Shown here: positions 7,297 to 32,000 of the stretch, piece by piece
Layout of the letters: each line of letters starts with the position of its first letter
Position numbering within the stretch: position 1 is the first letter of the stretch
NCBI GenBank assembly: GCA_943369485.1
Contig: CALRNH020000005.1
Span: 121,258 to 153,257, forward strand
DNA: 32,000 nt
Direction of reading: 5' to 3'
DNA from: Synechococcus sp. UW140
GTDB lineage: Bacteria; Cyanobacteriota; Cyanobacteriia; PCC-6307; Cyanobiaceae
Program-made: the position numbers and the translations under genes
The notes under the pieces: generated by a model
The model's database searches: none
Told to the model about the DNA's origin: nothing
What the model saw: the letters and a program-made list of their open reading frames with translations, nothing else

Positions 7297-7344
7297 CCTC
7301 GCCTGGGGCACTCCAGTGGTTCAGTGGCGGCCCAAGAAGGCGCG

Positions 7345-7431
7345 CAGGTGGAGGCCGCCTACGACAACCTGCACACCACCTCCATCGACCGGATGGGGAC
7401 GGTGATGACCGCGTGGTTCAGTGCGATCTGA
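7345..7431 (+). pseudogene. orphan duplicate of the carbonic anhydrase 3' end (last ~29 codons plus stop)
   Basis: 87 bp align without gaps to 6827-6913, with 77/87 identical by hand alignment. Translates as QVEAAYDNLHTTSIDRMGTVMTAWFSAI* versus QVEAAYYNLHTTSIDWMGTVMPVRFSTI*. Confidence 0.8.
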
Positions 7432-9234: not shown

Positions 9235-10083
9235 TCAGGCCCCCATGGCCGAATAGCGGCGCACCCCAGCGCGCCAGAGCAACAGCACGAACGGCAGCAC
9301 CAGCAGGCTCCAGCCCAGCAGGGCTCCAAAACCGAGCGCCAGATTCACCTCCCGGCCACTGAGCAGCTCGGCCTGAAAGCCGATCATCCAGGGGAAAGGA
9401 GTGGCATAGGCGAAGGCGCGCATGCCCTCGGGGAACGTGTCCAGGGGCGCCACCAGGCCCGAGAGAAACAGATAGGGGATCATCTGCAGGCGCTCCAGGG
9501 CCGCCGCACGCTCGCTCCAGAAGCAGAGCATCGTGATCAGGCTCTGGATCAAAAAGCGCAACAGGAACACCATCAAGGTGGCCAGCACCGCCAGCAGGAA
9601 GGTGGCTGGCGATGGCAACCAGAAGGTGTGGGGCAGCACCAGGAACACCAGGGCCAGGATCACGACCACGAAGGGCAGGCGGGTGGCCTGCTCCGCCAGG
9701 TGCGCGGCCAGGTAGCGCCACAGGGGCGGCAGCGGCTGCAGCAGGTAGGGGGAGAGACGGCCCTGGAGGTTGTCCTCCTCGAAGGCGTGGATCACCCAGA
9801 TGATCGTGAACTGACGCACCACGAAGGCCGCCAGGAAGTAGCGCGTGAGCTGCAGGGGGCTGAAGCCCACATCAGCCGCGGCGCCGGAGCCACTCCAGAC
9901 CCCGAGCATGATCAGCGGCAACACGCCGGAGAGCGCCCAGAGGGCGATCTCGGCGCGGTACTCGATCATCAGCGCGTATTGGCTGGAGAGCAGCACCCGG
10001 GCCAGGCGGATGGCATGGCTGGCGGCGTGAAGGGGCGCGCTGCGGACGGTGCTGTGAACGGCGTGGCGGCGGGATGCTCTCAC
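9235..10083 (-). CDS. ABC-2 type transporter permease (DUF990-like)
   Basis: 282 aa (...YALMIEYRAEIALWALSGVLPLIML...), multi-TM. The GTG start overlaps the VapC stop (GTGA). Confidence 0.75.
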   Translation of the reverse strand: MRASRRHAVHSTVRSAPLHAASHAIRLARVLLSSQYALMIEYRAEIALWALSGVLPLIMLGVWSGSGAAADVGFSPLQLTRYFLAAFVVRQFTIIWVIHAFEEDNLQGRLSPYLLQPLPPLWRYLAAHLAEQATRLPFVVVILALVFLVLPHTFWLPSPATFLLAVLATLMVFLLRFLIQSLITMLCFWSERAAALERLQMIPYLFLSGLVAPLDTFPEGMRAFAYATPFPWMIGFQAELLSGREVNLALGFGALLGWSLLVLPFVLLLWRAGVRRYSAMGA

Positions 10084-10502
10084 TTGGCGGAAGGGTCCTG
10101 GGGACTCTGAACGGGAGGCGCAAGGCTGAGTTGCCGGGCCTGGCGCACGAAGCTCCGATCGAAGCTCAGCAACACGGCACAGCTCCCGCTGCCTTGGTGG
10201 TGCAAGGCATCAGAGAAGTCGAGTCCCTGGCGATGGAGCTCCAAGGCGCCGAGCACCACCTCCTCCTGCTCGAAGCGCAGCTGCCGCACGCTGAGCAACC
10301 CAGCGAAGGCGGCCAGCACGGCTTCCCGGTCGAGCTTGTAGGCACCCCGCAGCACCCACTCCAATTCCAGGGACACCGTGAGGGGAACGAAACAGGCTTC
10401 GCAGGCCTCGATCACCGCCGCCGCGAGGGCGGCCTGGGCGGGGTCGTCGTTGGTGACCAGTCGCACCAGCAGGTTGGTGTCGAGGGCGACGGGAAGCGCC
10501 AT
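10080..10502 (-). CDS. vapC: PIN-domain toxin (VapC family)
   Basis: MALPVALDTNLLVRLVTNDD... has the N-terminal acidic PIN signature, with later conserved acidic positions. It sits immediately downstream of an AbrB-type antitoxin gene. Confidence 0.8.
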   Translation of the reverse strand: MALPVALDTNLLVRLVTNDDPAQAALAAAVIEACEACFVPLTVSLELEWVLRGAYKLDREAVLAAFAGLLSVRQLRFEQEEVVLGALELHRQGLDFSDALHHQGSGSCAVLLSFDRSFVRQARQLSLAPPVQSPQDPSAK

Positions 10503-10784
10503 TCAGAGGCGAACGGCAAAGGCCGCTGGGTCCATGGCTTCGATCGGCAACGTGGGGCCTCGGTAGCCACTGCACCCGATGACCTCCGCGGCCCGGTGGA
10601 TCTTGGGGGCAGATGCAACCTCCAGCCGCAAGCCTTGCCCCTCCAGCGTCAGAGAGAGCCTGGAGCCGGGACCAAGACCCAGCCGGCGGCGCAAGGCAGC
10701 GGGAATCACCAGCTGCCCCTTGGAGGACAGGGTGACCAGGGCGCTCTCCCCGGTGTCGGAATCCTGTGTGGAGAAAACGGCCAC
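10503..10784 (-). CDS. AbrB/MazE/SpoVT-family antitoxin
   Basis: VTLSSKGQLVIPAALRRRLGLGPGSRLSL is a SpoVT-AbrB swapped-hairpin motif. GTG start at 10784. The stop is directly followed by the ATG of the PIN gene. Confidence 0.8.
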   Translation of the reverse strand: MAVFSTQDSDTGESALVTLSSKGQLVIPAALRRRLGLGPGSRLSLTLEGQGLRLEVASAPKIHRAAEVIGCSGYRGPTLPIEAMDPAAFAVRL

Positions 10785-17237: not shown

Positions 17238-17636
17238 GTGGCGTTTCTGCTCGACACCAACATCCTGATCGCCGCCATCAAGGGCCACCCAGCCGTGGCG
17301 GAACGGCTGCGCAGCTTGGAGGCATCCCAGCTGTTGCTGTCATCGGTGGTGCTGGGAGAACTGGAGACCGGTGTGCTCAAGAGCGCCTGGCCGGCGCGCA
17401 ACCGTGAGCAGCTGGAAAGAGTGGTGAATCAGCTGGAACTGATCTCCGTGGATGGGGCCGTGGCCAAGGCCTATGGACGGATCAGCGCAGCGTTAGAGCA
17501 GCAGGGAACACCGATCGGGGCCAATGATCTCTGGATCGCGGCCCAGGCCCTGGTCAGTGGAGCCGTTCTGGTGACGGCCAACCTGCGCGAGTTCGAGCGG
17601 GTGGAGGGGCTGAGCTTGGACAACTGGTTGGCGTAG
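17238..17636 (+). CDS. vapC: PIN-domain toxin (VapC family)
   Basis: FLLDTNILIAAIKG...VVLGELETG...GANDLWIAAQAL...LVTANLREFERV carries the four conserved PIN acidic positions. GTG start. Confidence 0.85.
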   Translation: MAFLLDTNILIAAIKGHPAVAERLRSLEASQLLLSSVVLGELETGVLKSAWPARNREQLERVVNQLELISVDGAVAKAYGRISAALEQQGTPIGANDLWIAAQALVSGAVLVTANLREFERVEGLSLDNWLA

Positions 17637-18276: not shown

Positions 18277-20439
18277 GTGTGGATGCGTCGTCTCTCCAGG
18301 GATTCAGCGAGTCAGCTGAGCATCAAATCAAAGCTGATTCTGATGCTGCTGCTGGTGAGCGGCTTCTCCACGCTCATCTCGGCGGCCCTGGGCTATCGAA
18401 GCGGCCAGATCAATCTCACCAATCGGGTCTTCAATCAGCTCACCAGTGTCAGAGCTTCAAAGGCCTATCAGATCGAATCCTATTTTCGGAACATCCAGAA
18501 TCACACTCAGACCCTGAGTGAAGACCTTTCGATCGTCGCTGCCGTCGAGCAGTTCGACGCGGCCTTCCAGCAACTGAAAGGTGTGAAAGGGTCTGCCCAA
18601 TCAGACCAGGCCCTGGAGACCTACTACCGCAAGGAATTCCTACCACGGCTGGATCAGTACCATTCCGGCACTCCGAACCTCCCCGCCTATCTGGCCAGTG
18701 ACCCGGCCACGCGTTACCTGCAGTACAACTACATTGCCGCCAATCCCAATCCGGTCGGCAAGAAACAGCAACTCGTCGCCGCAAAGGATGGCAGCGCCTA
18801 TTCACAGGTGCATGGGCGCTATCACCCGATCTTTCGCAACATCATCGCCAAGTTCGGCTACTACGACATGTTCCTGATCAATCCCCAGGGACAGATTGTC
18901 TACACCGTTTTCAAGGAAACCGATTACGCCACCAACCTTGACCATGGCCCCTACAAGGACAGCAATCTGGCCGAGCTGGTGCGTCAGGTGATCGCCTCAA
19001 AGGAGAAAGGGTTCACCCGGCTGGTCGACTTTGCCACCTATGCCCCCTCCTACGGCGCACCCGCCTCCTTCATCGCGGCCCCGATCTACAACGGCTCCAA
19101 GCTGGTCGGCGTTCTCGCCTTTCAGATGCCCGTCGACGAGATCAACAACGTGATGACCGGCAACCAGGAATGGAAACAGGATGGACTGGGCCAATCAGGT
19201 GAAACCATCCTGGTGGGCCAGGACAACCTGATGCGCTCGGCCTCGCGCTTCTATCTGGAGAATCCCAAGGCCTTTCTGACCCAGTTGCAGTCACGGGGCA
19301 TGAAGGAAGACGCGATCGCACGGCTGCGCCAATACAAAACGACGATCCTGCAGCAGCCGGTCTCCACCCCGGCGGTGACCAAGGCGGTCGCCGGTGGCTC
19401 CGGAACCCTGCAGGTGGTCGACTATCGCGGTGTGCCGGTGCTGAGTTCCTATGCGCCGCTTCAGATCGATGGCTTCGACTGGGTGATCCTCTCCCAGATG
19501 GACCTGGCGGAGGCCTATGCGCCGATCCACGCCTTCCAGCGGCAGATCCTGATCACCGTGACGTTGCTGATCCTGCTGGTCACCCTGCTGGCCATGGCTC
19601 TGGCCCATCTGTTCGTCAAGCCTGTCCAGCAACTGATCGAGAGTGCCCGCAAGGTCTCGTCCGGCGAACTCACGAGCATCCCGGAAGTGAATTCCAAGGA
19701 CGAATTCGGAGAGTTGGGCCGGTCCTTCAATGCCGTCGTGCAGAGTCTCCAGACCCAGACGGCGCTGGTCGATCAGAAGAACCAGGAGAACGAGAAGCTG
19801 CTGTTCAGCGTCTTTCCCACGGCCATCGCCCGCCGGCTGCAGCGGGGTGAAACTCAGATCGCCGAAGACGTCACCAACGTGGCGGTTCTGTTCGCCGATC
19901 TCAAGGGATTCTCCCAACTCTCCTCGTCCCTCACGGCCTATGAATCGCTGGCCATTCTCAACGATCTGGTGGGGTCCTTCGATGACCTGGCCGAGCAGTT
20001 CGGTCTGGAAAAAATCAAGACCATCGGCGACAGCTATCTCGCGGTCTGCGGCCTCTCGGTGCCCTACCTCGACCATGACAAACGGGCGCTCGATTTCGCC
20101 ATCGAGATGCTGGGTGTCCTGCGACGTTTCAACCTCGAGCGCGGCTTCACCCTCGGTCTCCAGATCGGCATCCACTCCGGCGACATCGTGGCCGGCATCG
20201 TCGGCAAGAGTCGGGTGGTCTATGACATCTGGGGCGAAACGGTCAAACAGACCCACGGGCTCAGCCAGGTCTGTCCCTCCGGCTGCGTGCTTGTCTCCGA
20301 GGTGGTGCATCACCGGCTCGAGGATCTCTACCAGTTCGAGCTCACCTCCGCGGCAAGCAATGGTCAGAAATCACAGCAGGCCTGGCAGTTGATGAGCACC
20401 ACCGCGCCAGCGGTCGGCGAGGCACTCTCGAAACCATGA
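18277..20439 (+). CDS. membrane sensor nucleotide cyclase: TM - double-Cache-like periplasmic domain - TM - HAMP - class III cyclase domain
   Basis: TM1 KLILMLLLVSGFSTLISAALGY, a ~380-aa extracytoplasmic region, TM2 ILITVTLLILLVTLLAMALAHLF, HAMP VKPVQQLIESARKVSSGEL...FGELGRSFNAVVQSL, and cyclase VAVLFADLKGFS...IKTIGDSYLAVCG...YDIWGETV. Start is GTG 18277 or ATG 18283. Confidence 0.9.
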   Translation: MWMRRLSRDSASQLSIKSKLILMLLLVSGFSTLISAALGYRSGQINLTNRVFNQLTSVRASKAYQIESYFRNIQNHTQTLSEDLSIVAAVEQFDAAFQQLKGVKGSAQSDQALETYYRKEFLPRLDQYHSGTPNLPAYLASDPATRYLQYNYIAANPNPVGKKQQLVAAKDGSAYSQVHGRYHPIFRNIIAKFGYYDMFLINPQGQIVYTVFKETDYATNLDHGPYKDSNLAELVRQVIASKEKGFTRLVDFATYAPSYGAPASFIAAPIYNGSKLVGVLAFQMPVDEINNVMTGNQEWKQDGLGQSGETILVGQDNLMRSASRFYLENPKAFLTQLQSRGMKEDAIARLRQYKTTILQQPVSTPAVTKAVAGGSGTLQVVDYRGVPVLSSYAPLQIDGFDWVILSQMDLAEAYAPIHAFQRQILITVTLLILLVTLLAMALAHLFVKPVQQLIESARKVSSGELTSIPEVNSKDEFGELGRSFNAVVQSLQTQTALVDQKNQENEKLLFSVFPTAIARRLQRGETQIAEDVTNVAVLFADLKGFSQLSSSLTAYESLAILNDLVGSFDDLAEQFGLEKIKTIGDSYLAVCGLSVPYLDHDKRALDFAIEMLGVLRRFNLERGFTLGLQIGIHSGDIVAGIVGKSRVVYDIWGETVKQTHGLSQVCPSGCVLVSEVVHHRLEDLYQFELTSAASNGQKSQQAWQLMSTTAPAVGEALSKP

Positions 20440-21920
20440 ACACCTCCTCACCTCTGTGGTTGTGGGGAATCAGCCTGGCCATCGGCTTTCCCCTGCTGAC
20501 GATCGTGCTGGGCGAAGTGATCCATCGCCTGAAGCGACGGGGGCTGGCGATTGCGAGCACGGTCCGGCTGGTGCGCGATGTGCTGCTGCCGATCCTGGTG
20601 CTGTTGGTCTTCCTGCAGCACCTGCTCATGGTCGACCCCGGCAGTCGTCTGTTCAGGACCGTCGAGACGGTGTTCTGGGTCTGCGTGATCCATGCCGCCC
20701 TTTCCCTGCTCAACGTGGTCCTGTTCGAGCAGGCCGAGGCCGACACCTGGCGCTCAAGGGTGCCGAAGCTGCTGATCGATCTGGCACGCCTGTTTCTGAT
20801 CCTGCTGGGAACCGCGTTCGTTCTGGCCACCGTCTGGAACGCGGATCTGGCCGGTCTGGTCACCGCCCTGGGGGTCAGTTCGATCGTCATCGGTCTGGCC
20901 CTGCAGGACACCCTCGGCAGTGTGATGTCGGGCATTGCCCTGCTGTTCGAGCGGCCCTTCACGGTGGGGGACTGGCTGGAGGTGGGCGGCGTAGTGGGCC
21001 AGGTGATCGACATCAATTGGCGTGCCGTGAGGTTGCTGACGCTGGAGCAGGAGATGGTCGTGATCCCCCACAAGCTGATCAGCAGTGAGATCATCCGGAA
21101 TTTCACCAAGCCCAACCCGATCCACGCCGAAAGGATCCAGATCGGCTTCTCTTACAACGATCCGCCCAACCTGGCGCGGCAAGTGCTCAAGAGCACGGCC
21201 TTGGAAACCAAGGGCATTCTGCTGGATCCAGAACCTGATGTGTTCACGCTCGCCTATGCCGACTCTGCCGTGTCCTATGAGGTGAAGTTCTTCATTCGCG
21301 ACTATGGCGATGTTGAACAGATTCGTGAACGCTTCATGACACGGGTCTGGTACGCCGCCAAGCGCAACAACCTTTCGATTCCTTTTCCGATCCGAACGGT
21401 GTACAACTACCATGGGCCCACGAGCCAGCAGAAAGGGCTCGCCAAGAAGTTCAGCGAAAGCCTCCAGGCCATCCCCTCCTACGTACCCATCAATCGCGAG
21501 GAGAGCAGCGTCACCACCTCATCAACAGGAATCGCCCTTCAGCATTTTGCGGCAGGAGAGAAGGTGATCCGCCAGGGCCGAATGGGCAACGAGCTCTATA
21601 TCATTGTCGCCGGCCAGGCGGTGATGTCAACCCGCGATGACAGTGGCGAAGATCTGGACTTACTCGCGCTGAGAAGTGGTGAGTTCTTCGGCGAGATGAG
21701 CCTGTTTTCCGGTGAACCCAGCGTCGTGACCATCGCCGCCAGCAATGATCTTGAAGTGATGAAGCTCCCAGCGGCGGTGGTCAATCAGATGATCGATCGC
21801 CAGCCCAGCTTCGCCCGCGAGATCGGCCAGATCCTCGAGATCCGCCGCCTGGCGATCCAGGAGACGAAACAGGCCCACCGCCAGTCGATGCAGGACCAGC
21901 AAGCGGGGCAACGCCCCTGA
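20436..21920 (+). CDS. MscS-family mechanosensitive-type channel with C-terminal cyclic-nucleotide-binding domain (bCNG-like)
   Basis: N-terminal TM helices. MscS core GLALQDTLGSVMSGIALLFERPFTVGDWLEVGGVVGQVIDINWRAVRL...VVIPHKLI...IRNFTKP. CNB-like C terminus GNELYIIVAGQAVM...GEFFGEMSLFSGEP. ATGA overlap with the cyclase gene. Confidence 0.9.
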   Translation: MNTSSPLWLWGISLAIGFPLLTIVLGEVIHRLKRRGLAIASTVRLVRDVLLPILVLLVFLQHLLMVDPGSRLFRTVETVFWVCVIHAALSLLNVVLFEQAEADTWRSRVPKLLIDLARLFLILLGTAFVLATVWNADLAGLVTALGVSSIVIGLALQDTLGSVMSGIALLFERPFTVGDWLEVGGVVGQVIDINWRAVRLLTLEQEMVVIPHKLISSEIIRNFTKPNPIHAERIQIGFSYNDPPNLARQVLKSTALETKGILLDPEPDVFTLAYADSAVSYEVKFFIRDYGDVEQIRERFMTRVWYAAKRNNLSIPFPIRTVYNYHGPTSQQKGLAKKFSESLQAIPSYVPINREESSVTTSSTGIALQHFAAGEKVIRQGRMGNELYIIVAGQAVMSTRDDSGEDLDLLALRSGEFFGEMSLFSGEPSVVTIAASNDLEVMKLPAAVVNQMIDRQPSFAREIGQILEIRRLAIQETKQAHRQSMQDQQAGQRP

Positions 21921-23662: not shown

Positions 23663-24081
23663 GACAGGCGCCAGGGGTTGATCAGCTCCAGGCCGACCTC
23701 GGCAAAATCGGCACCGTCCCGGGTGGCCAGCTGAGCACCATGGGCCAAGGCGGTGGCGGCGATCACCGCATCGGCGGTGGCCATCGGGCACGCCAACCGA
23801 TCGCGCCGGCTCAACAGTTCGCCGTACCAATGCGCCGCCTCGCTGGTGAAAGGCCACACCCGTCCACTGAACAGCTCGGCCAGCAGCTCCTCCCAGCTCT
23901 GCTGCAGCGACTGCTTGCGGCGACCCTCCGGCAGCCGGGACAGGCCATGGCGGATCTCGGCTTCGTTCATGGCGGTGATGGCGACGGCGCCTGGATCGAG
24001 CCGATCGGCCCAGGCCAGAACCTGGGGAGTGGGCGTGGGGCGCATCAACTCCGAGATCACGTTGGTATCAAGCACGATCAC
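23659..24081 (-). CDS. vapC: PIN-domain toxin (VapC/FitB-like)
   Basis: IVLDTNVISELMRP...MNEAEIRHGL...DAVIAATALAHGAQLATRDGADF. GTG start overlaps the antitoxin stop (GTGA). Its TGA overlaps the GH57 ATG (ATGA). Confidence 0.85.
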   Translation of the reverse strand: MIVLDTNVISELMRPTPTPQVLAWADRLDPGAVAITAMNEAEIRHGLSRLPEGRRKQSLQQSWEELLAELFSGRVWPFTSEAAHWYGELLSRRDRLACPMATADAVIAATALAHGAQLATRDGADFAEVGLELINPWRLS

Positions 24082-24341
24082 TCCGCCGCCTCCGTGAAGG
24101 CCGGCGGCTGGGGGATGGAATGACGATCAGGCAGCTCCATCTCCACCCCTCCCAACCGGGCGAAATGGGCATGGATCTGGCTGCCCAAGCCCTGCACAGC
24201 AGAACCGGGCTCGCTAACCGCAACGGCTTCTTTGAGGATCGTGCGCGCCTCTTCCTCCATGGAGCGGCCATGGCGGGCGGCCTGGATGCGTAGCTGGGTC
24301 TTGATGCTGTCTTCGAGGTTGCGGATCGTGAGGGTGGCCAT
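24078..24341 (-). CDS. ribbon-helix-helix antitoxin (FitA/Arc-like)
   Basis: MATLTIRNLEDSIKTQLRIQAARHGRSMEEEARTILKEAV is the typical FitA-like RHH N terminus. AGGAG lies 7 nt upstream of ATG 24341. Confidence 0.75.
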   Translation of the reverse strand: MATLTIRNLEDSIKTQLRIQAARHGRSMEEEARTILKEAVAVSEPGSAVQGLGSQIHAHFARLGGVEMELPDRHSIPQPPAFTEAAE

Positions 24342-24595
24342 CGACTTGCTCCTGCTCACACTGAGCTCAATGCTATCAACGCCAGCACCGATCGCTTTCG
24401 CGCTCTCCGTCTGCTCAACGCTTATATCCAAGAATCTGGCCCACGATGGCCCTCAGGTCATCCAGCTGACCTGGACCCCAGAAACTGAACAAGTCCTGAT
24501 GAGAGCTTCCCAAGCGGGCAAACGTCCACCGCCTGGCCGGAAAGCGGCGAACAGGCGACACACTCCTAGGGTTGAATTAGCTGATTGTTGACCCA

Positions 24596-24856: not shown

Positions 24857-25224
24857 TGCGCTTGGTCAGGTGATCATTCGCTCAGAGCACCAAGCCAAGG
24901 ATCTGCCCCACAATCGCCATCACCTGCTCCGGTTGGATCCTGCGGGCCGCCGCCCGCTGACGATCAGGCGGGGGAGTCGGTGTTTCCTGCCCATTGGCAC
25001 TTGATTCAGAGGCGTGAGGGCGATGGCGAGCAGCCTTTGGATTGGGGGCGGGCACCGGCACGGGGGTCATCGCGGTGCGGAGATGGGATGGACCGCTTTG
25101 CCTAGGATTGGGAGGGCCGCCCGATCGGCAAGGTCAACCCCTTGGGGCCTCGGAGCCGGCCCATCCATGGGAACGGCCAACCATTCGTTGAGATCAGCAG
25201 ATCCATCCCTAGCCCGCAGATTCC

Positions 25225-26244
25225 ATGACCGCACCGATCCAGGCCCTCGCCGCCCACGGCGCCGGACAACCACTCGAACCCTTTAGCTACACCCCCGGCC
25301 CGCTCGGCAGCGAAGAGGTGGAGATCGCCGTTGAGAGCTGCGGCATCTGCCATAGCGATCTCTCCATGCTCGACAACGAGTGGGGCATGACCGCCTATCC
25401 GTTTGTTCCCGGCCACGAAGTGATCGGGCGGGTGGTCGCCCTCGGGGAGCACACGAAGCGTCTGAGCATCGGCGATCGGGTGGGGCTGGGCTGGTTTTCT
25501 GGCAGTTGCGGTGCCTGCGAACCATGCCTCTCCGGCAACCAGAACCTCTGCCTCAAGGCCGAAGCCACCATTGTTGGTCGCCACGGCGGCTTCGCGACGC
25601 GGGTGCGGGCCGACTGGACCTGGGTGGCCCCCCTGCCGGAAGGCCTTGACGACAAGAAAGCCGGCCCTCTGCTCTGCGGCGGCATCACCGTGTTCAACCC
25701 GATCGTGGAGTTGGGCATCCAACCCACCGACAGCGTGGCGGTGATCGGCATCGGCGGCCTCGGTCACATGGCCCTGAAGTTTCTAAGGGCCTGGGGATGC
25801 GACGTCACCGCCTTCACCACCAGCGACTCGAAACGGGAGGAAGCGCTCCAACTCGGCGCCCATCGCACCTTGAACTCCCGCAACGCCGAAGAACTGGCCG
25901 GTGCGGCCAGCAGCTTCGACTTCATCCTCAACACCACCAACGCCAACCTCGACTGGAACACCTACATCGCCGCCCTCAAACCCAAGGGGCGCCTGCACAC
26001 CGTGGGGGCCGTTCCCGAGCCGATCGCCCTGGCCGCTTTCCCGCTGATTCTCGGGCAGAAAAGCCTCTCCGGGTCGCCCCTCGGCAGCCCGTCCACCACC
26101 GACAAGATGCTGCACTTCAGCTGCCGCCACGGCATCTCACCCACCACGGAGTTCTTCCCCCTCTCGAAGGTCAATGAAGCTCTCGATCACCTCCGCGCCG
26201 GCAAAGCCCGCTACCGCATCGTGCTGATCAACGACCTGAGGTGA
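25225..26244 (+). CDS. zinc-dependent NAD(P)-alcohol dehydrogenase, YahK/cinnamyl-ADH-like
   Basis: GICHSDLSML, PGHEVIGRVV, GSCGACEPC (structural zinc site), GIGGLGHMA (Rossmann), and a C-terminal KARYRIVL. Collinear with E. coli YahK from memory. Confidence 0.9.
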   Translation: MTAPIQALAAHGAGQPLEPFSYTPGPLGSEEVEIAVESCGICHSDLSMLDNEWGMTAYPFVPGHEVIGRVVALGEHTKRLSIGDRVGLGWFSGSCGACEPCLSGNQNLCLKAEATIVGRHGGFATRVRADWTWVAPLPEGLDDKKAGPLLCGGITVFNPIVELGIQPTDSVAVIGIGGLGHMALKFLRAWGCDVTAFTTSDSKREEALQLGAHRTLNSRNAEELAGAASSFDFILNTTNANLDWNTYIAALKPKGRLHTVGAVPEPIALAAFPLILGQKSLSGSPLGSPSTTDKMLHFSCRHGISPTTEFFPLSKVNEALDHLRAGKARYRIVLINDLR

Positions 26245-26342
26245 GACCCGGGGTTGGATGGCGAACCTGCTGAAGCGATGCCGAATCAGCGGGCGGGCCT
26301 GTCCATCCATTGCAGAACGCCGTGGAGACGGCCAACTGAGGC

Positions 26343-27365
26343 TCAATCCAACGTTTTCCATTGCCCATCCCTCCCCTTCACCAGCAGGAGCCGCGGGGGA
26401 AACAGAACTCTGGAGGCCAGCTCAAAGCAGAAGCCCACGTCCTGGGGCAGGGCGGCCAGGCGCGCCTGGGTGCCCGGCAGGTTGGCAGGGCGGAACAGGC
26501 TGGTGCCAACGGAGCGGGCCACCACCACGGGGCTGTCGGTGGTGATCAGGCGAACGTCGGCCGGTGGGGGTGCCGCCACCCGGGCGCCTGCGGCATAGCC
26601 CCGCTCCAGGCAGCGGTTTTTGCGCATGGCGTCCACGTGGAACGCAAAGCCCCGATCGGTTGGCTGGGTGGCGAAGCGTTGATAGGCGCCGGAGAAGTCG
26701 GGCGAGAGCAGGGCGACGCGGTGGGCCAGCAGCGCCAGGATCGCGGCACGGTCGGACTGCTCCAGGCTGCGGATCGGTGGATCGTCGTGCCAGCTCTCGG
26801 CGCGCGCATAGGGAGCCTCGAAGCGGTAGGTGAACGACACGGGCCCCTGGCTGTCGCGCACCTCCCCCCCTTCGGCGCCCAGGTTCGTGGACAGGGTGGA
26901 TCCCTGGGGCGTGGTGGAGGTGGTGGTCTGGTCGCTCACCACGGCCCAGCGGAACTGGCTGCGGTAGCGAACCTGGGCGTCGATCGGCGTGAAGCGCAAC
27001 TGCAGGAGGTTGGGGCCCCGGCGCAGCACCGGCTGCAGCCCCCGCAGCTGCAGCCAGAAGGCCGGCGAGAGCTCGGGCGCGGCACCGCCAAGGCCCATGA
27101 CCAGGGCCTTCCTGGCCTCCAGGGGGTCGTCGAGCAGGGGCACCCCGTTGAGCTCCACCTCAACGCGGCCCGGCAGGGTGGGCCGCTCCTTGGCCTGGCC
27201 CAGATCGCCCCTGTAGGGGGTGAAGGTGATCTCCCCATTGACCGTGTTCGCCAGGGCGGCCAAGGGGGTGAGGGTGGTGGCCAGGGCCAGGGCGGGGGCC
27301 AGCAGCGAACGGGAGAGCCGGGTGCGGAGGCGTGGCACGGGGCGGAGCCGGGCAAGGGTGGCCAT
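26343..27365 (-). CDS. exported hypothetical protein
   Basis: 340 aa. N-terminal RLRTRLSRSLLAPALALATTLTPLAALA/NTV is signal-peptide-like. No family recognised. Confidence 0.55.
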   Translation of the reverse strand: MATLARLRPVPRLRTRLSRSLLAPALALATTLTPLAALANTVNGEITFTPYRGDLGQAKERPTLPGRVEVELNGVPLLDDPLEARKALVMGLGGAAPELSPAFWLQLRGLQPVLRRGPNLLQLRFTPIDAQVRYRSQFRWAVVSDQTTTSTTPQGSTLSTNLGAEGGEVRDSQGPVSFTYRFEAPYARAESWHDDPPIRSLEQSDRAAILALLAHRVALLSPDFSGAYQRFATQPTDRGFAFHVDAMRKNRCLERGYAAGARVAAPPPADVRLITTDSPVVVARSVGTSLFRPANLPGTQARLAALPQDVGFCFELASRVLFPPRLLLVKGRDGQWKTLD

Positions 27366-27436
27366 GGGCTCAGGCGACCGCGGGGAAAACCAGACCTAGC
27401 AGCAGAAAGCTGGTGGGCGGGAGGGTGGATGGAGTG

Positions 27437-27539
27437 CTGGGGCGGCACACCAACACCCGGAGCCGGGTTGGCTGCAGCCGCTACATGCCCATTGCCAGAA
27501 GGGATCCCAGCAGGGGCGATGGCCTGACGGGCCGCCCAA
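27437..27539 (+). repeat. copy 1 of a ~103-nt dispersed intergenic repeat (unclassified; candidate structured RNA or miniature mobile element)
   Basis: CTGGGGCGGCACACCAACACCCGGAGCCGGGTTGGCTGCAGCCGCTACATGCCCATTGCCAGAAGGGATCCCAGCAGGGGCGATGGCCTGACGGGCCGCCCAA. The termini GGGCGGC / GCCGCCC are complementary. Confidence 0.85.
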
Positions 27540-27583
27540 CACCAAACCTGGCCCTATTGCCCGGCAGCCGCCACCATCACTCC

Positions 27584-28025
27584 ATGGCCTCCAGCCCCTC
27601 TGCTGCCTTCCTGCGCCTGCGCGCGTTCATCGCCGAGCGGACGCGCATGAGCCCCATCGATCAACCGCTGATGCTGTAGCCGAAGGCTTCCGCGCAGTGG
27701 TTGGAGTTGCTGGGCCACTGATTAGCCAAGCAACAGCCAGCCCGGCCCCGGCGCAGGACGTGGCCCGCCGAATCCTGGGAAGCGCATGGTGGGCCGGGTG
27801 CTCACCGGCAACGGCATCACCACCTACGGCAACGGCGCCTACAGCCTGATCGGCGGTGACGAACTGAGCGATGCCGAGCGCGACGAGCTGCAGCTGCTGT
27901 GCCGCCAGCGCCTTGTCGCCTTCCGCGAGCAGCGCGGCGAGGAGGTGGGTTGTTTGTTTGTTGAGAAGCCTGCGGCTTCGGCCACCGCAGCCGCTACCAA
28001 ACCCCGATCACCAGCAGCAGGGTGA
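27584..28025 (+). pseudogene. decayed N-terminal fragment of an HNH/restriction-associated protein (tentative)
   Basis: ATG 27584 gives MASSPSAAFLRLRAFIAERTRMSPIDQPLML*, then a stop. About 100 nt later, in another frame, comes MVGRVLTGNGITTYGNGAYSLIGGDELSDAERDELQLLCRQRLVAFREQRGEE. From memory both pieces resemble the N-terminal winged-helix-like region of some HNH endonuclease family proteins (motifs RMRMSHxYQPVML and NMVGRVL). No nuclease domain follows. Confidence 0.3.
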
Positions 28026-28143
28026 CGGCCACGGCGGTTTCGGTAGGGGTGTCGCCGGGCTCCACGAAGTCGTAGCCACCGGCATCGCGCCCTGCACCAC
28101 GACCGCCTGGCACCAGTAGGGATGGTGTGGTGGGAAGCGTCAT
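27994..28143 (-). CDS. possible 49-aa tail-anchored mini-protein (very tentative)
   Basis: MTLPTTPSLLVPGGRGAGRDAGGYDFVEPGDTPTETAVAVTLLLVIGVW*, an internal ATG of a longer shadow ORF, directly downstream of dcd. Confidence 0.2.
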   Translation of the reverse strand: MTLPTTPSLLVPGGRGAGRDAGGYDFVEPGDTPTETAVAVTLLLVIGVW

Positions 28144-28217
28144 GCCTTCCACAGGCAGCAGGCCTGCATCGCGATGCCCCGCCCATCGATCGGGTGCCAC
28201 TGCTGCGCGTGGGTGGG

Positions 28218-28742
28218 TCAGAAGGAGTCTTCCGTCTGGCCGGCGAAGCGGCCGGCGTAGCTCTCGCTGCCCTGCAGCTTCTGGAACACGAACTGGCAGA
28301 TCGCGGTGCCGGGATGGACCGCCAGGGGAGCGGGGCCGAAGTTGCTCATCTCCAGCACCTGCTGGCTGTCGATCCCCGGCCCCATGAACGGGGCGCTGAT
28401 GTGCACCATCAGGCCCAGGCGCGCGAAACGGCTGCGGCCCTCCAGCCAGCCGCACAGACCAGGCCCCAGGCGCAGGCGCTCGCGGGTGATGCCCAGCACG
28501 GTCTCACCGGGCATGATCAGGATGTGCTCGCCCTCGGGCACCTGGATCTTCTCGGTGAGCTCCCGGTAGTCGCTGTGCTCCTGCACGTCGACCACCTGGT
28601 GCACCTTGCGGAACACGCGAACGGTGGGGGCGAGGGTGAGGTCGAGCGAGGCGGGGCCGAGCCGCTCGGGATCGAAGGGCGTGACCCCGATCGCACCCGA
28701 TTCCATTGCCTGCAGGATCGCCTCTCTCCCAAGAACGGCCAT
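28218..28742 (-). CDS. dcd: dCTP deaminase (dUTPase-fold Dcd family)
   Basis: ASLDLTL...PGETVLGITRERLRL...GWLEGRSRFARLGLMVHISAPFMGPGI...LEMSN...ICQFVF matches the Dcd pattern (G..EGRSS.ARLGL..H.TA..IDPGF.G..TLE). Confidence 0.85.
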   Translation of the reverse strand: MAVLGREAILQAMESGAIGVTPFDPERLGPASLDLTLAPTVRVFRKVHQVVDVQEHSDYRELTEKIQVPEGEHILIMPGETVLGITRERLRLGPGLCGWLEGRSRFARLGLMVHISAPFMGPGIDSQQVLEMSNFGPAPLAVHPGTAICQFVFQKLQGSESYAGRFAGQTEDSF

Positions 28743-28825
28743 GTCTTTCCCTGGGGGGTAGGCGGTTGTGGATTGTCTCAGGCGGCCGATCGGGCGCCAC
28801 TCGCAGGGGGCCTGTGCGGGGAGGA

Positions 28826-29746
28826 TCAGCCAGGAGGCGCTGCGGATCCGGTGGCGGCCGCACCGTCATCGGCGGGCAGGCCTGAACGCCTGGGCGGGTT
28901 GAGGTGCGGCAGCAGGGGCGCCGGGCCCAGTTGTTCGAGCCGGAAGTTGGCGCCATAGCTGCGGGTGGGCCGCTGCGAATAGAACCGCGCCCGGGGTTGC
29001 CGCCCCAGCCCCCGGCTCAGCGAGGCAACTGCGGCGGCGACGTGGCTGCGCAGGCGCAGGGCGGCGAGCACCAGCTGCTGCAACCAGCCGGGCGCCACGG
29101 GCCAGCCCAGGCTGCCCGCCGTCTGGCGATCGAGCAGGGCGGCCAGCACCCGGTGCAGCGTCGGCCTCAGGGGGGCGGGCCAGTCGGCCAGCAGCATGGC
29201 CAGGGTGGCGTCGGCGACGCGGCGGTTGCTGGGGGCCAGGGCGAACACCTGCCCTTCCACCTGCTCGTTGAGTGCCATCAGCTCCACCAGGCTGCCCGGG
29301 ATGGCGCTGATCCCCATCCGCTGCCCCACCGCCTGCCAGAAGCGGAACAGGTGCTCCTGCTCCAGGTCAGTGAGGCCCCGCCAGCCGTAACGACTCAGCC
29401 AGCGGATCGGCTCGGCCACAAAGGTGGAGAGCACGTAGAGGAAGTCGTCGTTGCCGATGGCGTAGTGGCCGTGGATGCGGTTCATCCGCTCGATCACCGC
29501 CGCACCCGCCTCGCTGTCGACCCCATGACGCAGCAGTTCGGCCACCATCAGGCCGGTGTCGTCGTAGCGCTTGCGCGGCCGCTGGGCGAACTCACCGGTG
29601 CGATCCAGCAGAGCGGAAATCGAGGGCACGCAGAAGGTCTTGAGCAGGGCCAGCTCAAGGGAGCGGGTGAGATCCCAGGGGAACACCACGCCGGCGAGGT
29701 GATGGCAGGTAGCTTCAGCCTCCTGCAGCGGGCAGGGATCGCTCAT
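28826..29746 (-). CDS. oxygenase MpaB-family (DUF2236) protein
   Basis: From ATG 29746: LLKTFCVPSISALLDRTGEFAQRPRKRYDDTGLMVAELL...IERMNRIHGHYAIGNDDFLYVLSTFV is typical of the MpaB/DUF2236 family. The upstream 104 codons of the ORF run into repeat copy 2 and are rejected. Confidence 0.7.
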   Translation of the reverse strand: MSDPCPLQEAEATCHHLAGVVFPWDLTRSLELALLKTFCVPSISALLDRTGEFAQRPRKRYDDTGLMVAELLRHGVDSEAGAAVIERMNRIHGHYAIGNDDFLYVLSTFVAEPIRWLSRYGWRGLTDLEQEHLFRFWQAVGQRMGISAIPGSLVELMALNEQVEGQVFALAPSNRRVADATLAMLLADWPAPLRPTLHRVLAALLDRQTAGSLGWPVAPGWLQQLVLAALRLRSHVAAAVASLSRGLGRQPRARFYSQRPTRSYGANFRLEQLGPAPLLPHLNPPRRSGLPADDGAAATGSAAPPG

Positions 29747-30002
29747 GGCTCCGGGGATCGGTCTGCCGGGTCGAAAAAAAGGGACCATCGCTGGAAACCC
29801 TATGGCGCCCTCGGAGGAAGCAGGCGTACCTCCACTGCTGCGTGCCGCGGCTCTATCGCAAGCCGAGCGATTCATGGATCCGTAGCACGGTCCTGCCCTC
29901 AAAGGTCCATCTGGAGGCGGATCAGGGGCGGCAGCTGCGCTCGCCCGGAAGGGGCTGTCTTGCCGTGATGGGCGGGATGCTGCCCATGTCTGGACAAAGG
30001 GA

Positions 30003-30104
30003 CTGGGGCGGCACACCCACACCCGGAGCCGGGTTGGCTGCAGCTGGAGCACGCCCACGCCAGAAGGGATCCCAGCAGAGGCGACGGCCTGACGGGCCGC
30101 CCAA
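30003..30104 (+). repeat. copy 2 of the ~103-nt dispersed repeat
   Basis: CTGGGGCGGCACACCCACACCCGGAGCCGGGTTGGCTGCAGCTGGAGCACGCCCACGCCAGAAGGGATCCCAGCAGAGGCGACGGCCTGACGGGCCGCCCAA. The central ~12 nt are the most diverged and it is 1 nt shorter. Confidence 0.85.
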
Positions 30105-30124
30105 AGCCACGAAGCTCCACACGC

Positions 30125-30394
30125 TCAGGGGCGATCGAGAAGCCTGCCGCTCACGTACTTGTGAAGGACACTGCTGATCAGGGTCTGGTAGGGAATGCCC
30201 TCCTGCAGCGCTCGGGCGCGCAAGGCGCCCAGATCCTCGCTGGTGAGGCGACTATTGATGCGCTGATCCTTGGTGGCCGTTGACCTTGCGGAGGCTTCGA
30301 GGCGGGAGCGCTCGGCAGCCGTAGCCACCGAACGGAGCGCGCCCGCTTCGAAGGCTTCCAGGATCTCCTGCTCGTCGTGATCAAGGGGGTTCAT
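30125..30394 (-). CDS. CopG/RHH antitoxin, BrnA-like
   Basis: MNPLDHDEQEILEAFEAGALRSV...KDQRINSRLTSEDLGALRARALQEGIPYQTLISSVLHKYVSGRL; the GIPYQTLI..lHKY..G C terminus is characteristic. An alternative upstream ATG at 30457 would overlap the HepT gene. Confidence 0.75.
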   Translation of the reverse strand: MNPLDHDEQEILEAFEAGALRSVATAAERSRLEASARSTATKDQRINSRLTSEDLGALRARALQEGIPYQTLISSVLHKYVSGRLLDRP

Positions 30395-30434
30395 GGTCGG
30401 TCTCCTGGGCGGTAGGCGATGGTGGCTCTGGTGT

Positions 30435-30776
30435 TCAGCCATTGCTCTGCCGCTCAATCAGCGAGCGAACGGTGAGACCAAGGGGAGGAAGATCACGCGC
30501 CACGGTTTCCCAGACCTGCTCCAGATTCACACGCAAATAATCATGAATAAGCACATCTCGCATGCCGGCGATGGACTTCCAAGGAGTGGACGGCTCGGAC
30601 TCGCGAAGATCCACCGACAGATTCTTCACGGCCTCACCGATCACGATCAAGTTACGAACCACTCCATCCTGCACAAGCGTGGAAGCAAGAAAGGCTGAGC
30701 GGCCTTCCGAGGTGTAGAGATTGATGCGCCCAAGGGCTTCGGTAATGCTGGCGAGGTAAAGGAGGTCCTTGCTCAC
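30435..30776 (-). CDS. hepT: HEPN toxin, DUF86/HepT family
   Basis: RX4HXY motif (MRDVLIHDY) plus IVIGEAVKNL. The GTG start overlaps the MNT stop (GTGA). Confidence 0.85.
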   Translation of the reverse strand: MSKDLLYLASITEALGRINLYTSEGRSAFLASTLVQDGVVRNLIVIGEAVKNLSVDLRESEPSTPWKSIAGMRDVLIHDYLRVNLEQVWETVARDLPPLGLTVRSLIERQSNG

Positions 30777-31087
30777 AATGCCGTGGCTTGCGCAATGATC
30801 TGATCCCGAATCAAAGGATGCAACTGATGTGCTTCCGCTAGATCCACTTGACAATTCAAGAGAGCTTCCAGTTCCTGCCGCAGGGCGATCACCTCCAGCA
30901 GGGAACAGCCCTGCTCCAGATCCACTAGTAGGTCAAGGTCGCTGCCGGGCCGATCCTGGCCACGGGCCACCGAGCCATAGATCCGCAGGTTGCAGGCCCC
31001 ATGGCGGCGAGCCACGGCCAGCACCTGCTCACGGGCGGCCTTCAGCCGCTGGGAGAGGGAGTTTTCCTGGGTCGAAGGAGCAGCCAT
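30773..31087 (-). CDS. mntA: MNT-type nucleotidyltransferase antitoxin (MntA-like)
   Basis: From ATG 31087: IYGSVARGQDRPGSDLDLLVDL (GSxxRG...DxD minimal nucleotidyltransferase motif). The longer upstream ORF extension runs through repeat copy 3 and is rejected. Confidence 0.85.
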   Translation of the reverse strand: MAAPSTQENSLSQRLKAAREQVLAVARRHGACNLRIYGSVARGQDRPGSDLDLLVDLEQGCSLLEVIALRQELEALLNCQVDLAEAHQLHPLIRDQIIAQATAL

Positions 31088-31228
31088 GGCCCCATTCTGG
31101 ACTGCATCCTTGCAGCTGTCCTGGCTCCAGGTCGCTCTGGTGGAGGATTGGCGAGAGCCACACTGGCATCTCCTGCGCCAACGGGAGGGGTCTCCACCTC
31201 CGCGAGCTGCTGCGAAGTGGGAGAGGGA

Positions 31229-31331
31229 CTGGGGCGGCACCCCCACACCCAGAGCCGGGTGGGCTGCAGCCGCTACATGCCCTTTGCCAGATGGCATCCC
31301 AGCAGGGGCAATGGCCTGACGGGCCGCCCAA
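31229..31331 (+). repeat. copy 3 of the ~103-nt dispersed repeat
   Basis: CTGGGGCGGCACCCCCACACCCAGAGCCGGGTGGGCTGCAGCCGCTACATGCCCTTTGCCAGATGGCATCCCAGCAGGGGCAATGGCCTGACGGGCCGCCCAA. Confidence 0.85.
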
Positions 31332-31422
31332 AACCTGCCTGCCGATCAGAAGTGGGCTGACACATCAGCCCACCAACCCCAACGCGGCGGCATCGCCTGG
31401 CGGGTGGCTTCACAATGGGGCG

Positions 31423-31770
31423 ATGAGCACGGCATCAGCGCCCCCGATCGAGGAACGGCTCCAGGCCATGGCCTGGGTGATCCAAGGCGTCATCCCCGGG
31501 GCGCAGGTGCGGCTGTTTGGCTCCAGGGCTCGCGGCACCGGTGGACCGGATTCCGATATCGATCTGCTGATCACCGCCCCGGATGACTGGCTGGCGCAGC
31601 ATCACCGTTTCAGGGTGCTGAACGATCTGTGGGGTCGGCTGGCCCAGGCGGATGTGTCGCTCGATCTGCTGCTTTGCTCCCGCAGCGAATGCGAGGAGCG
31701 CCAGGACTGGCGGAGCCACGTGATTGGCAGGGCCTACCGGGAAGGACGTCTCCTGCATGGCGCTCTCTGA
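31423..31770 (+). CDS. nucleotidyltransferase-domain protein (MNT-like antitoxin)
   Basis: From ATG 31423: LFGSRARGTGGPDSDIDLLITAP. Followed by an overlapping HEPN-like reading frame. Confidence 0.8.
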   Translation: MSTASAPPIEERLQAMAWVIQGVIPGAQVRLFGSRARGTGGPDSDIDLLITAPDDWLAQHHRFRVLNDLWGRLAQADVSLDLLLCSRSECEERQDWRSHVIGRAYREGRLLHGAL

Positions 31771-32000
31771 AGCGGAAGGTCTGCTGCGCATCGCCGCCGT
31801 CGATCTGGAGAGCGCTCAGGCTTCCTCCGACCCGACCGTCTTTCGCGAAGGGGCCTGGGGTTTCTGACTGCAGCAAGCCGTTGAGAAGGCATTGAAAGCG
31901 TGGTTGCTGCACCTGGGCAGCGATCCGCCGCTCACCCATGACCTGCGCCGTCTGCTGTTGCTGCTTGCTGCGGAGGGAGTGGCCACGGCCGACTTGCAGC
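31757..32000 (+). pseudogene. HEPN-domain gene interrupted by an in-frame TGA; 3'-partial at the window edge
   Basis: Own translation: MALSEAEGLLRIAAVDLESAQASSDPTVFREGAWGF*LQQAVEKALKAWLLHLGSDPPLTHDLRRLLLLLAAEG... The TGA is at 31865-31867 and the same frame continues open to the window end. QQAVEKALKA and THDL are classic HEPN (PF05168-type) motifs. Confidence 0.55.

Follow-up and report, generated by a model that had tools for sequence, protein, structure and literature searches.

The closest analog, in function and in appearance, of the arrays described here is the sedentary chromosomal integron, or the cluster of attC sites lacking an integron integrase (CALIN), with attC sites that resemble the Vibrio cholerae repeats (VCR). 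The attC site is built from R'' and R' boxes with the conserved triplets 5'-AAC...GTT-3' (RYYYAAC ... GTTRRRY), which pair in the folded strand (PMC4889954). Like the arrays described here, those systems consist of co-oriented repeats of ~60-140 nt that have complementary ends and are highly similar within a lineage; their cassettes are short, many of them are toxin-antitoxin modules, and in CALIN the integrase gene is often not adjacent. The repeat family of interest, which we call E, occurs in three copies in a 32,000-nt stretch of Synechococcus sp. UW140 (GenBank assembly GCA_943369485.1, contig CALRNH020000005.1, positions 121,258 to 153,257 of the forward strand), referred to below as the window.

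Picocyanobacteria of fresh and brackish waters rank among the major primary producers, and the turnover of their defense and toxin-antitoxin islands is poorly understood. E is a lineage-restricted repeat family that has not been described before; we found no description of it in the literature on integrons and attC sites in Cyanobium, on picocyanobacterial toxin-antitoxin islands or on tycheposons. It may well be, although we hold this tentatively, the noncoding head of an iterated gene unit and at the same time a homology tract for the gain, shuffling and loss of cassettes. The gene of this unit, designated gene X, encodes a protein with HNH and HIT domains. E marks a hotspot that is conserved and lies between dcd and a defense operon with HNH-HIT and helicase genes. 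Cassettes pile up there, pass from one species to another and erode, in a layout that mimics a chromosomal integron without attC signatures or an integrase.

Repeat E, gene X and the arrays they form

A repeat search of the window identified a three-member direct-repeat family (27437-27543, 30003-30109 and 31229-31335), with all copies on the plus strand and none within a credible gene. Alignment of the three copies with MAFFT gave a mean column identity of 79% and revealed blocks that are invariant in all three (CTGGGGCGGCAC, GAGCCGGGT, GGCTGCAGC, ATCCCAGCAG and GGCCTGACGGGCCGCCCAA). The terminal 19-mer, GGCCTGACGGGCCGCCCAA, is present three times in the window against 0.05 expected from shuffles, and the core, GAGCCGGGTKGGCTGCAG, three times against 0.33. 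An earlier, sequence-only reading of this DNA had proposed three co-oriented intergenic copies, which the repeat search, the alignment and the motif counts bear out; its copy starts stand, but the conserved unit continues 4-5 nt beyond the 3' ends that it gave. In the wider family the unit is ~110 nt long, ends at ...CCCAAARCC and follows a degenerate purine-rich leader of ~17-30 nt. Its ends carry a perfect 7-bp inverted repeat (GGGCGGC/GCCGCCC, present in the window copies as that reading described) inside imperfect ~11-nt ends, and its sequence reads as several palindromes and four GGGCG/CGCCC motifs of alternating orientation. The internal palindromes proposed earlier are also present in the window copies, but one of them, GGCC-N5-GGCC, is not kept in the wider family and has no conservation in a 41-copy alignment built independently of the 19-mer. 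The window as a whole has a G+C content of ~68% and contains five octamers of the highly iterated palindrome HIP1, against ~1.3 expected.

Gene X follows E at a fixed distance. A full-length copy (L036:6529-7530; recovered loci are cited by L numbers) encodes 333 aa; no Pfam family covers its N-terminal region, which is followed by the HNH nuclease domain at residues ~135-199 and by the HIT domain at ~205-320. The spacer from E to the gene X start codon is 39 nt in nearly every case, and 42 of 44 such spacers have E directly 5'. In L036 the order is E, 39 nt, codons 1-333 of gene X, 36 nt and E again; the same 36 nt separate the gene X stop codon from the next E in L036, L042, L044 and L035. 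Because E stands at both sides of gene X, the repeated unit comprises E, the spacer, gene X and a short tail. The sequence-only reading had allowed for E being part of a longer known element; a longer repeated unit does exist, but it is not a known mobile element.

The gene X family comprises 3,711 proteins at an E-value ≤ 1e-5. Its N-terminal ~120 residues contain the invariant motifs MR.S.I..P.M, YY and VG.V, and AlphaFold models the first 118 residues as helices and a beta-hairpin (block-mean predicted local distance difference test, pLDDT, 63-94). A fold search with this region returned weak matches (E-value ≥ 0.03) to winged-helix DNA binders of the MarR/PrfA/CAP type, and a profile of the domain found no solved relative among PDB sequences. 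Intact gene X heads a defense-like gene set in the marine Synechococcus strains RS9909 and RS9917 and in a lake metagenome contig. Both a Schlafen-type and a PLD-DEAD-DUF3427 helicase belong to this set, toxin-antitoxin modules stand immediately upstream of it, and gene X and the helicase operon are a candidate for an uncharacterized defense system. The intact anchor copies of gene X before the helicase operon are often without E (L051, L047, RS9909 and RS9917), and the distant marine homologs (~50% identity) are single-copy and without E. Among the degraded forms of gene X, whose fragments end near codons 16, 23, 36-53 and 100-121, among others, is the RRILG|SAWWAG allele, in which ~14 codons (EDVTQIDYYTERV) are deleted and the frame is shifted (window 27697-28025; L040, L004, L011 and others). 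As this defective allele is common to many genomes, with several copies per genome, it is a pseudogene variant that is being propagated.

We scanned one genome per species, 185,579 species representatives in all, for the 19-mer and recovered 45 stretches, ~30 of them in Cyanobium, freshwater and brackish Synechococcus, Aphanothece, Regnicoccus and unnamed cyanobacterial metagenome-assembled genomes (MAGs). The remaining stretches are chance matches without the rest of E. Each genome has one or two stretches, and the complete chromosome of Cyanobium sp. BSA11S has only one, which excludes a dispersed miniature inverted-repeat transposable element (MITE). E is absent from phage and plasmid collections, and three viral contigs that share a 17-mer with it contain no E. 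A nhmmer profile built from 24 copies showed that arrays, of 2-6 copies per 8-21-kb locus spaced 0.5-3 kb apart, are present at most loci. L042 has five copies, L035 five to six, L023 four to five, L002 four, and L013, L015, L022 and L029 have three each; further arrays lie in metagenome contigs (L055, L056, L062, L070 and L071). Across 25 multi-copy loci and ~70 copies, a single orientation is kept throughout each locus (probability ~2^-45 if orientation were random), and it is also the orientation of all gene X fragments in the same locus. Typical Cyanobium arrays of E, gene X and toxin-antitoxin modules were also seen in contigs binned as Mesorhizobium, beta-proteobacterium and Sphingobacterium MAGs (L007, L038 and L042), which are most likely mis-binned cyanobacterial contigs. 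For practical use, the 19-mer GGCCTGACGGGCCGCCCAA provides a probe that finds these islands specifically, whether in genomes or in metagenomes, and it also reveals mis-binned contigs.

Between the copies of E lie full or decayed copies of gene X and toxin-antitoxin modules. Cassettes confirmed with Pfam include BrnT/BrnA, HicA (with a putative HicB), MazE/MazF, HigB/HigA, GNAT/TacA, MNT/HepT and VapB; the toxin-antitoxin operons are mostly on the strand opposite E and gene X. The same cassettes recur in different settings. An MNT/HEPN cassette (right-hand junction class R3) follows a short E after BrnTA in L029, a full E after HepT/MNT in the window and a full E after hicB in L038, and in L033, L044 and L005 BrnTA has a full E on one side and a short E on the other. 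The only transposases seen by eye in the open reading frame (ORF) clusters of the 8-kb loci are IS21-, IS66- and IS4-like. No recombinase, including those of the PF00589 type, was found with Pfam among the 20 window proteins, 4 of which have no Pfam match at all, and none was seen in the 8-kb loci or in the 15-21-kb loci L055, L062 and L111, whose ORF translations were read by eye without a Pfam scan. We also noted that L011 (1027-1777) and L024 (4979-6124), from genomes ~96% identical, differ at one site near the array. To judge by the ORF translations alone, one appears to have a Phd/VapC-like pair and the other the zinc alcohol dehydrogenase, in what resembles a cassette-type replacement with no E nearby.

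Variants inside E are largely uncoupled from what surrounds it. Mutual information between E-internal variants and the class of the left or right flank was mostly 0.1-0.5; it climbed to ~1.0 for the left class at positions immediately before E and to 0.5-0.97 for the right class from +111 on. The copy in L007 resembles L039, which has the same left flank, in its 5' half, and L033 and L044, which have the same right flank, in its 3' half. This chimera and the uncoupling of internal variants from the flanks indicate that flanks have been reassorted across E. Partial copies of E are, as read from their sequences, microhomology deletions between short repeats. Positions 3-89 of E are fused to a BrnA flank at a common CAGGGGCGAT in L029 and L023, a second copy in L023 has a deletion between two GCCCAA repeats, and a widespread short form joins the 5' 16 nt to the 3' 52 nt, with the 43 nt between GCCA repeats missing. 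Synechococcus CBW1107 keeps only the last 15 nt of E, the spacer and 20 gene X codons.

The junctions themselves are spread out. Three unrelated right-hand neighbors diverge at one point after ...AAARCC; other right junctions fall within gene X or 20 nt past the start of the spacer. About eight flank classes meet E from the left, and their last 17-30 nt are mutually homologous (GATGCTGC...TGGG...GGGA). Truncated copies begin at model positions 7-70, and the left junctions range from ~-30 to +70 relative to E; a sharp, site-specific left boundary, which we had considered, was not upheld. Because the junctions are scattered on both sides, there is no single crossover nucleotide. By pairwise identity, E (85%, with 90-94% at both ends) and the spacer (80%) far exceed the leader (48%). 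E and the spacer, being more similar than the homologous leader upstream, are thus either under more constraint or more homogenized.

The array in the window and its surroundings

The features of the window array are as follows.

24968-25069, plus strand: isolated C-terminal fragment of gene X (aa 297-330), 2.4 kb left of E copy 1
25225-27365: alcohol dehydrogenase, then a 340-aa gene without a Pfam match
27437-27543, plus strand: E copy 1, full length (nhmmer 27434-27544, E-value 1.3e-30), followed by a 40-nt spacer and a decayed gene X
27544-27583, plus strand: conserved spacer from E to gene X (AAACCTGGCCC...CATCACTCC)
27584-28025, plus strand: decayed gene X (HNH-HIT family), codons 1-32 and then a stop, with frameshifted pieces of ~aa 39-121
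28218-28742, minus strand: dcd (dCTP deaminase, PF22769), a conserved array neighbor
28826-29746, minus strand: gene with an MPAB_Lcp_cat domain (PF09995)
29975-30002, plus strand: leader of E copy 2 (GGGATGCTGCCCATGTCTGGACAAAGGGA), homologous to the hicB upstream region of other genomes
30003-30109, plus strand: E copy 2, full length (nhmmer), with a HicB-type leader as left flank; its right edge adjoins the 3' end of the BrnA/CopG-like antitoxin gene (junction type R2)
30125-30394, minus strand: BrnA/CopG-like antitoxin gene, with 15 nt between its stop codon and the right edge of E copy 2
30435-30776, minus strand: HepT-like toxin gene (PF01934)
30773-31087, minus strand: MNT nucleotidyltransferase antitoxin gene (PF01909)
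31229-31335, plus strand: E copy 3, full length (nhmmer); its right edge adjoins the MNT/HEPN cassette (junction R3)
31423-31770, plus strand: MNT nucleotidyltransferase gene of the R3 cassette (Pfam), followed to the window end by a frameshifted HEPN gene

The decayed gene X after E copy 1 is the widespread deletion-frameshift variant described above; the plus-strand start at 27584, which the sequence-only reading took for that of a gene, opens only the first 32 codons of this remnant and is not live. The flanks of the other two copies recur elsewhere. The hicB-side leader of E copy 2 is the commonest left leader, and the hicAB genes themselves are absent here although the leader remnant is present. 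The right flank of this copy, the 3' end of BrnA, is common to L007, L033, L044 and L005, and that of E copy 3 to L029 and L038. A frameshift splits the HEPN partner of the R3 MNT gene (31770-32000; L001:6571-6870), which reads LLRIAAVDLESAQ... before the frame changes and LQQAVEKALKAWLLHLG... after it; decay is under way in this toxin-antitoxin cassette as well. Past the window end, the matching Logan contig (L001) continues with VapC/VapB and then another 5' fragment of gene X, the upstream region of which is without E. At the other end, the isolated C-terminal fragment at 24968-25069 indicates that the array formerly reached further left, which puts the alcohol dehydrogenase and the 340-aa gene within the old array. 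A possible, heavily deleted remnant of E (GGGAGGGCCGCCCGATCGG, ~25102-25125) lies 3' of this fragment.

Other features of the window stand apart from the array. Of the beta-carbonic anhydrase gene at 6134-6913, the last 29 codons and the stop occur a second time 518 nt further downstream (6826-6913 versus 7344-7431, 89% identity). The second copy, with an open frame only ~44 codons long, is a partial gene duplication or a pseudogene. The region 18277-21920, with a G+C content of 58-63% against ~68%, encodes a dCache-HAMP adenylate/guanylate cyclase and, directly after it, an MscS-type channel with a cyclic-nucleotide-binding domain, which look like a signaling pair, possibly acquired. Toxin-antitoxin-like genes, none of them flanked by E, are also found outside the array at 10080-10784, 17238-17636 and 24078-24431; these are a PIN-like and AbrB/SpoVT-like pair and a second PIN-like gene, both identified by eye from the translations, and a FitA-like ribbon-helix-helix antitoxin identified with Pfam.

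Explanations for the repeat

The reading that we favor, with E as the head of the gene X unit and as a homology tract, rests on the unit as a whole (E of ~110 nt, 39-nt spacer, 333-aa gene and 36-nt tail) and would place it in a hypervariable toxin-antitoxin and defense island of Cyanobium-clade picocyanobacteria, between dcd and the gene X/helicase operon. As all copies of E, with or without the 5' end of gene X, are direct repeats, a homologous crossover would excise, re-insert or swap the segment between them. Swaps between strains would occur by homologous crossover inside E; after DNA uptake, one E would suffice as an anchor for the addition of a foreign cassette; and microhomology-mediated deletions would then trim the units. 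These events would have left the order that the window shows: E with decayed gene X, dcd and the MPAB gene, E with BrnA-HepT-MNT, and E with MNT-HEPN and VapBC, followed by a gene X fragment. Crossovers and deletions of this kind would account for the co-orientation and the chimeric copies, for cassettes being reused, for fragment ends being scattered and for no recombinase being found. What is observed directly is how the arrays are built, that they are linked to gene X, that both flanks are decoupled at E, that deletions follow microhomology and that RNA structure finds no support; we infer that the cassettes were moved by RecA-type homologous exchange at E and not by a dedicated recombinase, and that E has been retained mainly as a shared homology tract, as the gene X upstream region or as both. 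Among the roles suggested for E by the sequence-only reading, that of a recombination site fits best, in the loose sense of a place where flanks are reassorted and without the defining features of attC. If the exchange is purely homology-driven, these islands offer a clean natural case of repeat-scaffolded cassette shuffling.

Several observations speak against this reading. Arrays of gene X fragments and toxin-antitoxin modules are also found without E (L074) or with one E (L111), so E is not required for array formation. Chimeric copies are predicted by homologous and site-specific exchange alike. The joining of unrelated cassettes at nearly the same right-hand nucleotide, after ...AAARCC, in three junction classes is unexplained by the model. 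Further, E and its spacer (85% and 80% pairwise identity) are kept far better than the homologous leader before them (48%), which suggests purifying selection on E beyond that on a passive homology tract. The last 18 nt of E (CCTGACGGGCCGCCCAAA) are nearly invariant and are retained in CBW1107, where the rest is lost. The good preservation of E and of its 3' 18 nt, which homologous exchange leaves unexplained, makes a regulatory or protein-binding role for gene X the main rival.

In this rival reading, E is primarily a cis-regulatory region of gene X, either a sequence-specific 5' leader or an operator or platform to which a protein binds. Selection would hold it at a constant distance from the start codon, and the extra copies would be by-products of duplications of the gene X 5' end; we consider this unlikely, though still to be taken seriously. 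The bound protein could possibly be gene X's own N-terminal domain, which is modeled with good confidence as helices and a beta-hairpin and resembles winged-helix folds, although these matches are weak (E-value ≥ 0.03). The nearly constant 39 nt to the gene X ATG, the conservation that extends across the spacer and on into the gene, against 48% identity in the decayed homologous leader to the left, and the palindromes and four alternating GGGCG/CGCCC motifs of E are all consistent with regulation. However, a scan of the copies and their flanks (27200-31600) found no sigma-70-type promoter and no relevant terminator, and the E consensus, lacking any TA dinucleotide, has no -10 box. Intact anchor copies of gene X also often lack E altogether, and E is kept where gene X is 16 codons long or absent, as at window copies 2 and 3. 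Of the cis-regulatory leader proposed earlier, the structured form is not supported; regulation of the downstream gene at the sequence level is possible, E being fixed 39 nt from its start codon. A structured RNA, or part of one, is very improbable, whether as a small RNA, as a leader of the riboswitch kind or as an RNA antitoxin to the nuclease. E is intergenic, ~100 nt long, rich in GC stems and conserved across species, and its place directly upstream of a potentially toxic nuclease gene might by analogy recall type III toxin-antitoxin layouts. Against this, Rfam 15 gave no match at the gathering score in the whole window. At an E-value ≤ 10, nothing in 27300-31500 overlapped E copies 1 and 2, and the sole overlap with a copy was MIMT1_1 at 31172-31261 (E copy 3; 22.4 bits against a gathering score of 45, E-value 0.49), a chance-level match to a model without base pairs. 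The RNA minimum free energy (MFE) of each copy, on both strands, was no better than that of shuffles (z from -0.27 to -0.80). Covariation was assessed with RNAalifold on 24 full-length copies from 21 loci and the window (mean identity 89%), and this left the structure unsupported on either strand: none of 20 pairs on the plus strand and none of 22 on the minus strand was compensatory, and E with the spacer and start codon gave 28 pairs, 1 of them compensatory, with a covariation term that was a penalty. In the 41-copy alignment, uncompensated substitutions disrupt every proposed stem (GGGCGGC/GCCGCCC, CCCGGAGCCGGG, GGCTGCAGCC and CAGCCA/TGGCTG). The structured RNA of the sequence-only reading thus finds no Rfam family, folds like shuffles and has 0-1 compensatory pairs in 21-24 copies, besides lacking a promoter or terminator signature and tolerating 1-2-nt indels and the 43-nt internal deletion. 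The indels also exclude coding by E. A G-quadruplex in the purine-rich leader and the 5' end of E was considered too, and dropped because the G-tracts are missing from several copies.

The remaining explanations invoke a dedicated enzyme. A genuine site-specific site like attC/VCR, acted on by a recombinase encoded elsewhere or by the HNH-HIT protein itself, is improbable, even though co-oriented ~110-nt repeats with complementary termini and toxin-antitoxin-rich cassettes of 0.5-2 kb recall sedentary chromosomal integrons (PMC4889954). The divergence of three unrelated right neighbors at the same nucleotide, the decoupling of flank identity at both edges of E and the short form, which loses the center only and keeps both ends as attC length variants do, also agree with it. 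So does the folding of the E consensus as single-stranded DNA, better than shuffles on the two strands (z = -3.1 and -2.9), although this reflects the palindromic make-up of E rather than a maintained structure. But the AAC...GTT triplets are not in the attC arrangement, the predicted fold is branched with stems broken by uncompensated substitutions, and no tyrosine or serine recombinase was seen in the window (Pfam) or, by eye, in the 8-kb loci and the three 15-21-kb loci. Moreover, junctions that range from ~-30 to +70 on the left and from +0 to the inside of gene X on the right are better explained by illegitimate events, and the cassette genes are mostly whole operons on the opposite strand. 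A more specific version, with very little probability, is that E and a winged-helix-HNH-HIT protein form a cassette-capture system, in which E would be bound, nicked by HNH and resealed or transferred via a covalent or adenylated intermediate handled by HIT. Toxin-antitoxin and defense cassettes bounded by E would then be excised and inserted beside gene X, in an integron-like platform without a tyrosine recombinase; any dedicated enzyme that acts on E would represent a new recombination system. We give similarly little credence to E as a nonautonomous mobile element, of the MITE or the IS200/IS605 and palindrome-associated transposable element (PATE) type, inserted repeatedly in the island. 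Its ends could be read as imperfect terminal inverted repeats (CTGGGGCGGCAC against TTGGGCGGCCC as the reverse complement), and it is a discrete unit with differing sequence on both sides and with left flanks that tend to end in RGGGA, a possible target motif; as an IS200/IS605-type target this motif was rejected, as it belongs to the homologous, diverged leader of all flank types. The MITE-like element proposed from the sequence alone is contradicted by the confinement of E to 1-2 loci per genome, with a single exact 19-mer match in a complete genome, by the constant orientation of ~70 copies in 25 loci, always in the same array type, and by the same spacer and gene nearly always 3'. There is also no visible target-site duplication and no matching transposase, only unrelated IS21-, IS66- and IS4-like genes (8-kb loci, by eye), and phage and plasmid collections are free of E.

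Comparison with described arrays

Arrays of attC sites and CALIN have at least two co-oriented sites within a few kb; the window holds three copies of E, and the 25 loci hold 2-6 each. The resemblance does not extend to the sites. The termini of E read CTGGGGCGGCAC ... GGGCCGCCCAAARCC, with an AAC-like triplet at the outer 3' end but no partner GTT on either strand. In place of the single imperfect hairpin kept from one attC site to the next (R box, unpaired spacer and L box with extrahelical bases, ending in a variable terminal structure), the MFE folds of E are branched and have no compensatory pairs. The integrase IntI, optional for CALIN, was found neither among the 20 window proteins (Pfam) nor in the loci read by eye. 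Given the absence of the AAC/GTT triplets, the single bulged hairpin and IntI, we do not file E as attC. The E arrays also differ from attC arrays in that entire operons, for the most part on the opposite strand, make up their cassettes, among which a nuclease gene and its decayed copies are the most frequent, and in that their junctions are at no one fixed nucleotide.

Tandem accretion of islands at an integration hotspot, as with partial tRNA/att repeats or in the tycheposon-type arrays of marine picocyanobacteria, likewise produces same-orientation repeats of the target end, with cargo, beside one intact target in a hypervariable island. Yet what the E arrays repeat is a protein gene's 5' flank together with its 5' end rather than a tRNA or transfer-messenger RNA (tmRNA), of which ARAGORN found none in the window. 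No integrase or element backbone was seen at the E arrays, which contain toxin-antitoxin modules, gene X copies and occasional insertion sequence (IS) transposases but no integrase-bearing element between the copies of E, and the fragment end-points are scattered, with no single att core.

Two further systems have only single features in common with the E arrays. The pdif modules of Acinetobacter plasmids are also small modules, often toxin-antitoxin, that are bounded by recombination sites and reshuffled between replicons. Their sites are, however, 28-bp XerC/XerD sites of alternating orientation, whereas E is ~110 nt long, always direct and without a recognizable 11-6-11 Xer core. The pilS/pilE silent cassettes similarly place an intact gene beside many co-oriented partial copies with shared conserved flanks, but the partial copies of gene X are broken by frameshifts and stops, alternate with unrelated toxin-antitoxin operons and give no sign that they supply variation to the intact copy. 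Neither a structured RNA nor a MITE, E and its arrays belong among the repeat-punctuated cassette arrays.

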